This document shows positions 22,935 to 58,232 of a DNA stretch of 64,000 nucleotides, piece after piece. The stretch is from a virus (Duplodnaviria; Caudoviricetes), in IMG/VR virus record IMGVR_UViG_3300001525_000065, positions 45,712-109,711 of that record, one strand, 5' to 3'. The first letter of the stretch is position 1, and each line of letters starts with the position of its first letter. Under the pieces are notes generated by a model. It did not search any database and was not told the origin of the DNA. It saw only the letters and a list, made by a program, of their open reading frames with translations. Made by a program: the position numbers and the translations under genes.

Positions 22935-23303
22935 TTACTTATCCTCTGATTCATCAGTAGTATCTTCTATTGCATCAGATTCAATCTCAGTATCCTCTGA
23001 TTCGTCTAATACTAGAGCAGACTTAGCAGATGCATTCTGCTGACTTGCATTAGTGTCAGGATTTGGATCAGGCTTCTTAGCTGATGGATCTGTTACTTCA
23101 TAAGTAGCACCTAGGAGCTTACATAACTTATCAGTGAGTGCAAGCTGATAACTGTTATCAGTCTTGACCATGAGCTCATCACCGGTAGCAAGAGTAACGA
23201 GATGATTCTCATTCAGGTGCTTAGTGATGATAGATAGCTTAGTAGCATCAGTAGCAGTGATGGTCACTATTGCTGGTGCTATCGAATAATCAAATGTAGC
23301 CAT
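22935..23303 (-). CDS. putative capsid decoration protein (paralog of 23323..23535)
   Basis: N-terminus MATFDYSIAPAIVTITAT closely matches the neighbour; downstream of MCP. Confidence 0.4.
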   Translation of the reverse strand: MATFDYSIAPAIVTITATDATKLSIITKHLNENHLVTLATGDELMVKTDNSYQLALTDKLCKLLGATYEVTDPSAKKPDPNPDTNASQQNASAKSALVLDESEDTEIESDAIEDTTDESEDK

Positions 23304-23322: not shown

Positions 23323-23535
23323 TTATGACTTAGCTGCATTAGTGACAGTGACATCAATCGCATTAGCGAGTTCTTTATAATATGCAAGCTCTGCAGAAGA
23401 GTTTGCTACGACCTTGAGGACATCATCCTTAGCAAGATCAATAGAGAAATTAGGTACACTGAAAGGTACCTTTACATCAGCGGTGGCAGTAATAGTAACT
23501 ACTGCAGGTACTGCAGAATAATCAATAGTAGCCAT
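23323..23535 (-). CDS. putative capsid decoration protein
   Basis: MATIDYSAVPAVVTITAT; first gene after MCP. Confidence 0.4.
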   Translation of the reverse strand: MATIDYSAVPAVVTITATADVKVPFSVPNFSIDLAKDDVLKVVANSSAELAYYKELANAIDVTVTNAAKS

Positions 23536-23727: not shown

Positions 23728-26700
23728 TTATGCCAGTATCGCGCCTCTGCAATACATATTGCTATTGATCATGCGCTTACCATAGCTCATCATCCATGCA
23801 CGACGTCCTACAAGGTCATCAGTGCGAAGGAGATCAGAAGGAGTAATGGGAAGGAAAGGACAATATACATCGTTTGTGTTACTGCTACTTCGTTTCCAAG
23901 TAGCATCACTAAGTTTCCTTAGTGACCAGACTATATCATTACCTCATGTATTATGATGAGGTATCTCACACTTTGAACTCACTTGAGTCCTACAGAGTTG
24001 CCACTCTTAGTCGTTGAACTTTCTACTTATACATAATGTATAAGATAGCTTAGCTGCTGATTATCCATTGTTGCAAGAGGTTAGATTACTCATACTCTTA
24101 TACTGAAGATTCTTTCTGCTTTCGCTGCATTCGCACTTGCCATCACTGGCTATGTTGTAGCTCTTCAGCCTTTAGGAGTTTCCAGCAATTCATGAGATTT
24201 TCAATGACCAGTCACCTGGCCATGGGACTGTTTAGTAACCAATTGCTTATGCAGCTTTATTAGTACTAGTTAATCCTGCATCAAAGAGACCTGTACCTCT
24301 GTATCCAAGCACGTACTCATTAGCAGGGAAGTCAGGAGATACATATACAGTGAACTGCCCATAAGTGCCAAGGAGGTAAGGACCTACACCTGCATTACCG
24401 CTAGGAACAAAGTTACGAGAAGCAGAGATAACTGCTGCTACGCCAAGTCCACATACGAGAACATTCTATTCATTCAATAAGAATCGTTACTTCTTATTCG
24501 TGTATCATACATGCACTGCTAATCATTTCTGACTAGAATAGACTATATCTTCATCATGGCATCTATTACCAATGACATGATGCTCATCATTTTGATCTTA
24601 CTTAAGATCTACTCTACTTGCTTCTTCACTAGTGGATTTCTCACTAGTTATGCTTTCGATAGTCGTTGAACTTCTACTCATGACTAATCATGATGTAGTA
24701 GCTGCTGATTGTCCATGTATCTCAATAATTCTCAAGCATTCACACTTGTCATCACTGACTATGTTGTAGCTTATTGAGCTTTAGGAGTTTCCAGCAATTA
24801 GATGAGTTTAGACAGACCGATGTTACGCAGCCTGTACCTTGCGAGTATTCTGATAGATGATGTTGCTACCTTCAAGAAGTCTAGCATAGAAGGAGTCATA
24901 GTGGTCAAGGAGTGAAATGGCAGTGGGCTGAGCCTTAGACCATGCAGTGTTAGTAGCGCCTGCCTGAGCAAGAAGGTCTCCGCATACCTCCATATCCACT
25001 TCATGTGCTAGCTCACCAGCAACCTCAGCTGCCATTAGAGCATCGATCTGATTTCCATCATTTATGTTAGCTAGTCATTTCTGACTAGATCAGACTATAT
25101 CTTCATCTCATTGTCAGTGAGATGTCATTCATTTCGATTTAAGGGGATCTCACCCACTCATCATGTATTGTGATGAGCCCTACTCCTATAGAATAGTTTA
25201 TGTCAGTCTATTCCTTATAATTGGGATAGTCGTTGAACTTTATCCTATTCGGATTTTAGCTGCTGATTGTCCATTATGGAGATGTTTAGGATTTAACCAT
25301 GCATCATATACTCATTTCTTTTTACTTTCGTAGCATTCACACTTGTGCTTATTTCATCACTATGTTGTAGCATGAGTATCTTTGGGAGTTTCCAGCAATT
25401 AGAATGATTTATTATTGTACTCATCACTGAGTACCGGAGCTTGGCTTTCAGATGATCGCTAACTCCTTCTCGAACTGAAGCGCAGCACTGAGGGAATAAA
25501 GAGATTTAATGGTACGATCCTTAGCTACGATCGGAAGAGATTCAATAGAGAGCTGAACCTCAGGAACTGCAGCAGGAGCATACTTATTGTTATAAGTGTA
25601 TGTAGCAGTCCATGTACCTGCACCAGGAGCAGCAGTGAAGGTAAGTGCGCCAGTTGCATAGTCAATAGAACCAGCATCAGTGCCGCCCTTCTTGAGGTTG
25701 CCATTACCATCATCAGTGTAGACATTAGTGCCTTCAGTGATGTTGACAGATCCAGGAGCTACAGGAATCCATGCAAGAGATACAGTCGTATCAGTTGCAC
25801 CAAGTGCAAGAACTTCACCATCAACAAGTTCTGCAGTGTAGTTCTCATCAGACTGACCACCATAGATGGACGTCATGAAGGTGTCACCTGCTTTAACCTG
25901 ACCCTTGTTGGATCCATAGTTATACTTAATATAATTTACCATACCTACGCGAGCAGACCAATTACCTTACAAATACATCGTATCCACGTATTCTCTACAT
26001 ATTACTATGTAGTTGAGACTATATCATCATCTGAAGTACTGTTACTATACATCAGATGCTTCGCACTTCGATTTAAAGGATTTATCATGAGTTATTATCG
26101 CTCATGTACCTACCACTTGGCTCTACTCTACTCAGTTATTCACTAGTGTATTTCTCACTAGTTATCCTTTCGATAGTCGTTGCTCCTCTAGTACTACTCA
26201 GGGCACTAGAGGATCAGGATTGTCCATGTACTGCGTAACTTTACATGGAGGTTCCCTGAGTTCACGAAGTTTATCATAATAGATCACTCTATTATGCCAC
26301 CTCATTGATGGGCTGCACTGAAACTAGATCGTACATAATGGTGTTAGGTACCATTGCATTAACGATATCCACATTTATCTTACGAATGTATCGTATCCAT
26401 ACATTCTCTATACATTACTGTATAGATGAGACTATATCACATTCTCATTGACTCTTCACCAATGAGAACCTCACCATTTCGATTTAAAGGATTTACCATA
26501 AGCTAATCTCACTCATGTACCTACCACTTGGCTCTACTCTACTAGCTTATCATCACTGTCATATCTCAGATTAATTAGTGATTATGCTTTCGATAGTCGT
26601 TGAACTACCATCCTGCATCTAGATGATAGCTGCTGATTGTCCTAGAACTAGTTAATGATCATCCTGGGAGTTCCCAGCAATTAAGTGAGTTTGCATAACT

Positions 26701-26933
26701 AATCACTTAGTTATGGCGCAGGAGATTTACGCCCATCTCTTATATGATCCAGCAGAACCACCAATAGAAGTTACCTGAGTAGCCTCGAGGAGGTTCTTAG
26801 TATTCTCAAGAGTTGCAGCAAGTGCATTCTTACGATCGATGGAGAGAGCCTTACCAGTGGCTTTCTCAGTCATGGTTATACGCTTACCCCACTTCTCCAT
26901 AAGAGCTGAATTAGTTTTAGAAATTGCATTCAT
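23728..26933 (-). CDS. major capsid protein (gp23-like), spliced from six exons: 26933-26729, 26371-26308, 25958-25462, 25058-24829, 24465-24273, 23870-23728 (1332 nt, 443 aa)
   Basis: Joining at U|…G| sites gives one open frame with gp23 motifs: DLVSVQPMSARVG, EKEYGNQIDALMAAEV..EL.HEVD, QANVLVCG, LGYRG...FDAGYVYCPF, MSYGK. Follows the protease/scaffold gene. Confidence 0.93.
23871..24272 (-). ncRNA. group I intron 5 in MCP (IA-type, 402 nt, no ORF, extended P1 loop)
   Basis: P1 GGAU/GUCC with U·G; P element AAUUGCUGGAAAC; Q AAUCAGCAG; R UCAACGACUA; S GAUAUAGUC; terminal G. Splicing restores DAG-Y-VY. Confidence 0.92.
24466..24828 (-). ncRNA. group I intron 4 in MCP (363 nt, no ORF)
   Basis: P1 ACAGGCU/GGUCUGU; P10 AACAU/AUGUU; P, Q, R and S core present; terminal G. 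Confidence 0.93.
25059..25461 (-). ncRNA. group I intron 3 in MCP (403 nt, no ORF)
   Basis: P1 GGAGU/GCUCC; P, Q, R and S core present; terminal G. Splicing restores EKE-Y-GNQ. Confidence 0.92.
25959..26307 (-). ncRNA. group I intron 2 in MCP (349 nt, no ORF)
   Basis: P1 CCAU/GUGG; variant P4 (CUCAGGGAAC/AAUCCUGA); R CAACGACUA; S GAUAUAGUC. Splicing restores VQP-M-SAR. Confidence 0.9.
26372..26728 (-). ncRNA. group I intron 1 in MCP (357 nt, no ORF)
   Basis: P1 GGCGU/GCGCC; P, Q, R and S core present; terminal G. Splicing restores WA-L-DIV. Confidence 0.92.
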
Positions 26934-26948
26934 GATTAGATTCTCCTA

Positions 26949-57392: not shown

Positions 57393-57471
57393 TGGTGGAA
57401 CTTATAGGACTCGAACCTATGACCTTCCATGCATACCCACAGGTGGCTCTACCGAACTGAGCTAAAGTTCC
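57393..57471 (-). tRNA. tRNA-like RNA with an aberrant anticodon arm (isotype undetermined)
   Basis: Perfect acceptor stem GGAACTT/AAGTTCC, D arm GCTC/GAGC, T arm ATAGG-TTCGAGT-CCTAT and encoded CCA. The anticodon arm is non-canonical. Confidence 0.75.
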
Positions 57472-58146: not shown

Positions 58147-58232
58147 TGGTGGAGATAGAGAGATTCGAACTCTCATGCTCTAGGAGCAAAGGCTTCTAAG
58201 ACCTTCATGTCTACCAGTTCCATCATATCTCC
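58147..58232 (-). tRNA. tRNA-Leu(UAG)
   Basis: Acceptor GGAGATA/TATCTCC, anticodon arm AAGGT-CTTAGAA-GCCTT, long variable arm, GAGAG-TTCGAAT-CTCTC, A73 and CCA. Confidence 0.92.

Follow-up and report, generated by a model that had tools for sequence, protein, structure and literature searches.

Predicted self-splicing group I introns without endonuclease genes in the gp23-like capsid gene of an uncultured tailed phage

We analysed a 64-kb window (64,000 nucleotides, bases 45712-109711) of the 109,711-bp IMG/VR virus record IMGVR_UViG_3300001525_000065, a metagenome assembly of an uncultured tailed phage with direct terminal repeats and a CheckV completeness of 63%. The only major capsid protein (MCP) gene of this genome, placed on the minus strand of the window between positions 26933 and 23728, is interrupted by five group I introns. 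These introns most probably are self-splicing, selfish elements which spread by homing and carry no endonuclease genes (we assign a probability of about 0.8 to this interpretation).

The ribozyme cores were identified with cmscan, using the Rfam model of the group I catalytic intron (RF00028; gathering score 50 bits). Five matches were obtained on the minus strand of the locus, with scores of 66.5-91.1 bits and E-values of 1e-14 to 5e-22, and all were full-length (model positions 1-253): 26408-26738 (intron 1, 66.5 bits), 25995-26319 (intron 2, 78.3 bits), 25071-25507 (intron 3, 72.9 bits), 24519-24892 (intron 4, 84.2 bits) and 23907-24246 (intron 5, 91.1 bits). The Infernal analysis thus verified the group I cores that had been recognized in a first-pass annotation, made by a model from the sequence without database searches. 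The same annotation had reported no group I intron elsewhere in the window, and a permissive RF00028 rescan (E<=0.01) also detected none; the sixth match of the genome (C1:1021-1361, minus strand, 60.7 bits) is located outside it.

The coding segments were localized by tblastn with the uninterrupted MCP of Bacillus phage vB_BceM-HSE3 (HSE3), which revealed six collinear exon pieces. To define the junctions, every combination of a 5′ site ending in U with a 3′ site preceded by G was considered, and the joined peptides were scored against five uninterrupted homologs; the junction of intron 4 was set from its P1 helix and by extension of the tblastn match. A Shine-Dalgarno sequence, GGAG (26943..26946, minus strand, as are all the following features; read from the sequence), lies 9 nt ahead of the ATG of exon 1 (26729..26933; 205 nt, encoding amino acids (aa) 1-68 plus 1 nt), whose product is 100% identical at the aa level to that of a close relative, L005, described below. 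This exon ends with GGCGU, which pairs with the internal guide sequence GCGCC of intron 1 (26372..26728, 357 nt) to give a 5-bp P1 with a U·G pair, the guide abutting P2. Exon 2 is only 64 nt long (26308..26371), and its junction peptides are gap-free relative to the uninterrupted homologs. It is followed by intron 2 (25959..26307, 349 nt, P1 CCAU/GUGG), the 3′ tail of which is collinear with that of intron 1.

Exon 3 (25462..25958, 497 nt) is the most divergent of the coding segments (46% aa identity to the HSE3 MCP). Downstream of it lie intron 3 (25059..25461, 403 nt, inserted at aa 255 in phase 1, P1 GGAGU/GCUCC), exon 4 (24829..25058, 230 nt), intron 4 (24466..24828, 363 nt, with a P1 of 6-7 bp, CAGGCU/GGUCUG), exon 5 (24273..24465, 193 nt), intron 5 (23871..24272, 402 nt, inserted at aa 396 in phase 1, P1 GGAU/GUCC) and exon 6 (23728..23870, 143 nt including the TAA stop codon). 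Exons 1, 4, 5 and 6 were all detected by tblastn, and exons 4, 5 and 6 are contiguous in a natural allele (contig L009, protein P0155; see below). Two sets of candidate boundaries were discarded. The P1 helices of introns 4 and 5 as aligned by Rfam fall inside exon 4 and after an in-frame stop, respectively, and were replaced by the junctions based on homology and pairing. An intron 4 starting from exon end 24844 (378 nt) was also rejected, as exon end 24829 is favoured by tblastn, the 6-7-bp P1, the homolog alignment and L009.

With these junctions the introns account for 1874 of the 3206 nt of the locus (58.5%), which is identical to the numbers given in the first-pass annotation, and the joined exons (1332 nt) encode 443 aa without an internal stop. 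The G+C content is 45.6% in the exons and 36-39% in the introns. Alignment of the spliced protein with 91 full-length relatives showed no gap at any of the five junctions relative to its four closest uninterrupted homologs (52-54% identity). The compared peptides (slash at the junction) are YKRWA/LDIV and YKRYALDIV for the first junction, VQPM/SARVGM and VQPIDNRVGM for the second, EKE/YG and EKEYG for the third, RKVQA/NVLVCG and RKVQPNFMVCG for the fourth, and DAG/YVYCP and DAGYFYCP for the fifth.

Two of the junctions are also fixed by the natural allele. A search with exon 4 identified P0155, a protein of 180 aa (99% identical) encoded on the 996-nt ENA contig L009, which is 92-96% identical to the window at the nucleotide level. 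This contig starts with the last 83 nt of intron 3, which are followed by exons 4, 5 and 6 with introns 4 and 5 missing, and it reads ..RKVQA/NILVCG.. and ..LFDAG/YVYCPF.. exactly over the two predicted junctions. L009 is either an intron-less DNA allele or a partly spliced RNA, and in both cases the two junctions are established. With exon 1 as the query, no uninterrupted alleles were found over introns 1 and 2.

The anatomy of the individual introns is typical of group I. In all five, the 5′ exon ends in U, which forms a U·G wobble with the guide in P1, and the intron ends in G (tails ..AAAUG, ..AAUUG, ..AAAUG, ..AAUAG and ..AAACG for introns 1-5), in agreement with the earlier description of both features. 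The guide is placed directly 5′ of P2 in introns 1, 2, 3 and 5, and directly 5′ of P3 in intron 4, which has no P2 hairpin. When each guide was paired with each exon end (a 5x5 cross-test), the longest P1 helix was formed with the intron's own exon end, or the joint longest in the case of intron 5. RNAalifold, applied to four introns inserted at aa 255 in different phages, recovered P1-P9 de novo; compensatory changes were found in 27 of the 80 predicted pairs (in P1, P2, P3, P5, P6 and P9), one of them being an exon-guide pair. Parts of the cores are 73-85% identical to introns of Staphylococcus, Brochothrix, Listeria and Clostridium phages. By their cores, P1 helices, terminal G and the restored frame, these are genuine group I introns, which would be expected to splice themselves.

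Minimum-free-energy folding of the 70-155-nt segment after P7 predicted at least two hairpins between the 5′ strand of P7 and P3′ in each of the five introns. This region is occupied by P7.1 and P7.2 in subgroup IA (classes according to PMC3984707), and, judged by these predicted hairpins, the introns appear to be subgroup-IA-like (IA2-like). The reading frame of the preceding exon is closed 2, 16, 14, 6 and 26 nt into introns 1-5, respectively; an in-frame stop near the 5′ splice site is typical of such introns and keeps ribosomes off the folding core (PMC3984707). Among stop-to-stop frames, no open reading frame (ORF) of more than 70 codons was present in any of the five introns, and the longest frames (up to 70 codons) are antisense, which upholds the earlier view of the introns as ORF-less.

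Several lines of evidence support the assignment of the interrupted gene as a gp23-like MCP gene, apparently the sole capsid gene of the genome. The Gp23 profile (PF07068) is matched in order by four exons (positions 4-32 in exon 2, then 32-159, 166-241 and, in exon 5, 245-317) with E-values of 1e-4 to 4e-6, each match alone being under the 24.4-bit cut-off, and the same domain is carried by the contiguous P0155 allele and by full-length homologs. The upstream gene encodes a T4-type prohead protease (family Peptidase_S77), and the syntenic locus of L005 contains genes of a T4 portal and a gp13-like neck protein. A 443-aa gp23-like product including a 64-nt exon had already been proposed, and the open frame, the gap-free alignment and the Gp23 profile bear this out. 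The first-pass annotation had also considered that another, uninterrupted MCP might be the virion protein; no second capsid gene (Gp23-like or HK97-type) was found in the 109.7-kb record. The expectation that ORF callers would miss the MCP proved correct in L005, where the gene calls for it comprise just unannotated fragments of 53, 143 and 56 aa.

The history of the introns can be approached through L005, an ENA contig of 81.5 kb which shares 91-95% identity with the window in the flanking genes. Its MCP gene contains eight RF00028 matches, five of which are orthologous to introns 1-5 (96.6, 83, 97.5, 98.1 and 97% identity, respectively) and three of which are extra. Two of the latter are inserted in phase 0, at aa 16 and at aa 274. 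The third (L005:5578-5940) follows GGCAU near aa 96 and has a 5-bp P1, GGCAU/GUGCC; a canonical frame-keeping 3′ splice site was not found for this intron, since ..VG(M)VNY.. is restored by just one 3′ site, which is preceded by A, and use of the canonical G leads to a stop. A non-canonical site, a dead copy or a fault in the assembly could account for this. Individual introns would seem to be dispensable, because introns 4 and 5 are missing from L009 and L005 contains three additional ones. A further observation concerns exon 3, which is 89.8% identical to its L005 counterpart at the nucleotide level (89% at the aa level), compared with 93.7-98.5% for the other exons and 96.6-98.1% for four of the introns. 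As exon 3 is more divergent than these other parts, the capsid gene is a mosaic, possibly due to recombination or to diversifying selection on the middle of the protein.

L005 also shows how endonuclease genes are associated with this locus. Its intron 5 contains an ORF of 239 aa of the Phage_endo_I family, situated in the loop that separates the 5′ splice site from the guide. This L1 loop is about 790 nt long in L005 including the ORF, and 44 nt in the window (24229..24272, from the 5′ splice site to the internal guide); the first ~30 nt of the two introns are homologous, and from the guide on they are 97% identical. The last nine codons of the L005 ORF overlap the guide and P2, and have been retained in the window because they are part of the ribozyme. 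In addition, a free-standing NUMOD3 endonuclease gene is present just downstream of the MCP gene in both L005 and L009, and is missing from the window. The genome of the window encodes an intein with a weak HNH_3 match, placed outside the window.

A survey of intron occupancy in related MCP genes, which had been suggested in the first-pass annotation, revealed from none to eight group I introns per gene. A search based on a nine-sequence alignment yielded eight loci in each of two collections, and a scan of IMG/VR with a single protein gave no match; the genes surveyed are about 37-60% identical to that of the window across the exons (aa level). Uninterrupted MCP genes occur in HSE3, LIS04, GXN1, L010, L018 and L019. 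The numbers of RF00028 matches (E<=0.001, most of them >50 bits) are five in L024, four in L025, three in L023, two in L012 and two in L011, one of the latter being downstream of the capsid gene. In this gene family, at least 13 insertion sites were mapped. L011 and L024 have an intron at aa 255, phase 1, which is the exact site and phase of intron 3 of the window, and L012 has one at aa 396, phase 1, exactly as in intron 5. The site at aa 274 is common to L025, L012 and the extra intron of L005; the genes sharing the sites at aa 255, 274 and 396 in identical phase have about 50% identity. Other introns of the family are inserted at aa 67, 93, 95, 248, 249 and 328. In SP-15 and L008, Phage_endo_I genes lie within MCP inserts at aa 248-249.

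The introns inserted at aa 255 are mutual best matches across lineages, and introns located elsewhere resemble introns of different sites (that of L005 at aa 274 is closest to intron 2 of the window). This points to one intron family, whose members were probably inherited or homed at fixed sites and occasionally reached new ones. In L012, a 202-kb relative, a further RF00028 match begins at the end of the capsid gene (locus L012:6223-7663), and a second copy of the last ~40 capsid codons is found 1.3 kb downstream.

We propose that the gp23-like capsid gene is transcribed as a 3.2-kb precursor, from which the five ribozymes, which appear to be subgroup-IA-like, would excise themselves by two-step, guanosine-initiated transesterification, giving a 1332-nt mRNA and the 443-aa capsid protein. 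Each intron would recognize its 5′ splice site through its own guide, immediately ahead of P2 or, in intron 4, of P3, and the stop codons 2-26 nt past the splice sites should block ribosomes from entering the ribozyme cores. As selfish elements of one sequence family, the introns would have been carried by endonuclease-driven homing into many sites of the capsid gene family; those of the window would have lost endonuclease genes or never contained any. They may have been maintained, with no adaptive role, since exact loss is infrequent and splicing renders them almost harmless. Scans for transcription signals were uninformative: promoter-like sigma-70 sites were fewer in the locus than expected from shuffled sequences, and the four best terminator-like matches, which have 7-9 stem pairs or are in exon 1, belong to the non-coding strand and are placed mostly in intron hairpins.

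A number of observations weigh against this interpretation. We infer splicing from sequence comparison, and L009 may be either DNA or RNA. The P1 helices of introns 2 and 5 have just 4 bp and, taken alone, are not above chance. A P10 helix running contiguously from position +1 of the 3′ exon is absent from all five introns; P10-like pairings of 3-5 bp starting from +2 were suggested, by hand inspection only, for introns 1, 3 and 4. P10 is no requirement for membership of the group I family. Four of the orthologous introns (96.6-98.1% identity to L005) show slightly higher conservation than the flanking genes (91-95%), which could result from selection on the ribozyme fold, from a function of the introns or from recent transfer. 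Finally, no homologs of the Phage_endo_I and NUMOD3 endonucleases of L005 were found in the genome of the window, so that present-day mobility would need a co-infecting donor.

Insertion of an intron disrupts the target site of a homing endonuclease, and the introns might be kept as protection, each of them interrupting the recognition site of an endonuclease of competing relatives. An intron-laden MCP gene would be immune to cleavage during co-infection and could be propagated through gene conversion, as in collaborative homing or marker exclusion. Such protection, which we regard as possible but not probable, would be in keeping with the Phage_endo_I gene inside intron 5 and the NUMOD3 gene right after the capsid gene of relatives, with the Phage_endo_I genes in the capsid introns of SP-15 and L008, and with the different intron sets of phages that are 92-98% identical. 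Collaborative homing of ORF-less introns with free-standing endonucleases has been described (PMC3984707, PMC2790892). L009, however, contains the NUMOD3 gene and yet has no introns 4 and 5, so these sites are not obviously its targets; moreover, the target sites of the endonucleases are putative only, and the explanation overlaps with that of selfish elements, differing just in who benefits. Protection from endonucleases, one of the roles put forward earlier, fits in part with established biology and with the genes found at the locus of the relatives. In a broader and still more doubtful version, the capsid gene family would be an exceptional intron sink, in which ORF-less copies immunize conserved capsid codons against the homing endonucleases of competitors. 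If this were true, the intron load would be a record of phage-against-phage warfare over the capsid gene and not neutral clutter.

It is very unlikely that the introns act as a regulatory device or a source of RNA, in which serial splicing delays or meters capsid synthesis or the excised introns function in trans. The somewhat better conservation of the four orthologous introns and the location of all five in the most highly expressed late gene would be compatible with such a role. A built-in regulatory function is nevertheless disfavoured, because phages 92-98% identical differ in their intron sets (near-identical relatives function with at least two fewer to three more) and many members of the family, such as those with the uninterrupted genes listed above, have none; beyond the ribozyme, no conserved non-core element is common to the five introns. 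A timing device, trans-acting RNA and protection from CRISPR, all suggested in the first-pass annotation, thus found no support and are weakened by the different intron sets of these relatives. Least probable of all, to a degree that we consider negligible, is that the gene is dead or mis-assembled, with decayed relics or assembly chimeras in place of introns and no working capsid protein. The record is indeed a metagenome assembly of incomplete CheckV status, and the GGCAU intron of L005 has no canonical frame-keeping 3′ splice site. Against this stand the five full-length, high-scoring cores, the exact restoration of the frame, the presence of the same five introns at the same sites in an independent assembly (L005), and the position of the gene as the sole capsid gene of a record with terminal repeats.

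Self-splicing selfish introns, the reading we prefer, have well-known counterparts in phages. The classical phage introns of subgroup IA2 are those of T4 (td, nrdB and nrdD) and SPO1 (PMC3984707), and three group I introns in one gene, orf142 of Staphylococcus phage Twort, are indicated by the title of the report of Landthaler and Shub (1999) as cited in PMC6669764. The introns described here resemble these in that they occur in a protein-coding gene of a tailed phage, are in some cases ORF-less, have an in-frame stop just inside the intron and are predicted to form peripheral hairpins between P7 and P3′. They differ in their number (five, with eight RF00028 matches in L005, as opposed to the three in that title), in the host gene, which is a gp23-like capsid gene and not one of nucleotide metabolism or replication, and in that splicing is here deduced from sequence.

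Interrupted capsid genes are also precedented. Group I introns are typical of the MCP genes of the crAss Delta and Zeta groups, and in the crAss-like Zeta genome OLRF01000054 (a cMAG) the MCP gene is in five fragments (Yutin et al. 2021, PMC7886860). As in our case, the gene is divided into at least five pieces by self-splicing elements, which confounds annotation, and inteins occur in TerL, as appears to be so in the genome of the window. The crAss phages, however, represent another lineage with another MCP family (here PF07068, accompanied by T4-type portal, protease and neck genes), their introns were recognized via endonuclease domains, whereas all five described here are ORF-less, and the genome analysed by us uses the standard genetic code. 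The MCP gene of Bacillus phage SP-15 (KT624200) is annotated as two joined pieces flanking a Phage_endo_I gene. It is a member of the same MCP family, with 44% aa identity to exon 3, and has an intron-like insert which is weakly group I (38 bits); this single endonuclease-bearing insert at aa 249 contrasts with the five ORF-less introns at other sites in the window.

Among eukaryotic viruses, the gene encoding the Faustovirus E12 MCP has 13 exons and five group I introns, two of which contain GIY-YIG genes, and its splicing was shown by RNA-seq (PMC6247863). The two systems share the number of group I introns in one capsid gene and a higher G+C content in exons than in introns. Faustovirus is, in contrast, a giant virus of eukaryotes with a double-jelly-roll MCP, additional introns that are not group I, and no coupling of transcription and translation. 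Essential late genes heavily loaded with introns are also known from the uncultured Jug jumbo phages of the gut, which have about 18.5 group I introns per genome, terL in 2-3 fragments and an average intron length of about 206 nt, metatranscriptome reads having confirmed 37 out of 76 introns (PMC12880540); their introns are spread over many genes, unlike the five of 349-403 nt located here in one gene.

The earlier judgement that five introns in an MCP gene are unusual was a fair one, although the crAss Zeta and Faustovirus genes provide precedents. The mechanism is not new; what deserves attention is the presence of five ORF-less introns in a T4-type capsid gene, within a family with many mapped insertion sites. 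We found no published description of this clade in the literature on gp23 introns and the SP-15 intron. A practical consequence is that capsid-based classification and completeness estimates would fail for these phages unless the introns are modelled, because gene callers report just unnamed fragments of the MCP. The window, L005 and L009 represent three near-identical haplotypes whose intron sets differ; a single intron bears an endonuclease gene in one of them and lacks it in another. Together with the distant genes that share insertion sites, they form a natural series for studying intron gain, intron loss and endonuclease decay in an essential, highly expressed gene, and the locus offers a system in which to study the folding of five ribozymes in advance of the ribosome.

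Some additional features of the genome were noted. Directly downstream of the capsid gene there are genes of two small paralogous proteins of 122 and 70 aa (22935-23303 and 23323-23535, both on the minus strand), which begin with MAT.DYS..P..VTITAT and match no Pfam family. Both are conserved in L005 and could function in head decoration. Two tRNA genes (RF00005, 48 and 56 bits) are located at 57396-57471 and 58150-58232 (minus strand), the second with a long variable arm. Outside the window, the sixth intron of the genome lies within locus L026 (C1:542-3198, minus strand), between an ORF of 82 aa with a Walker-A-like GLGKTT motif and an ORF of 162 aa which ends in a Hint/intein N-terminal segment. 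Just upstream there is a frame of 468 aa with a full intein splicing domain and the weak HNH_3 match mentioned above. This locus looks like the N-terminal half of a terminase large subunit (TerL) with an intein, an intron and half of a split intein.

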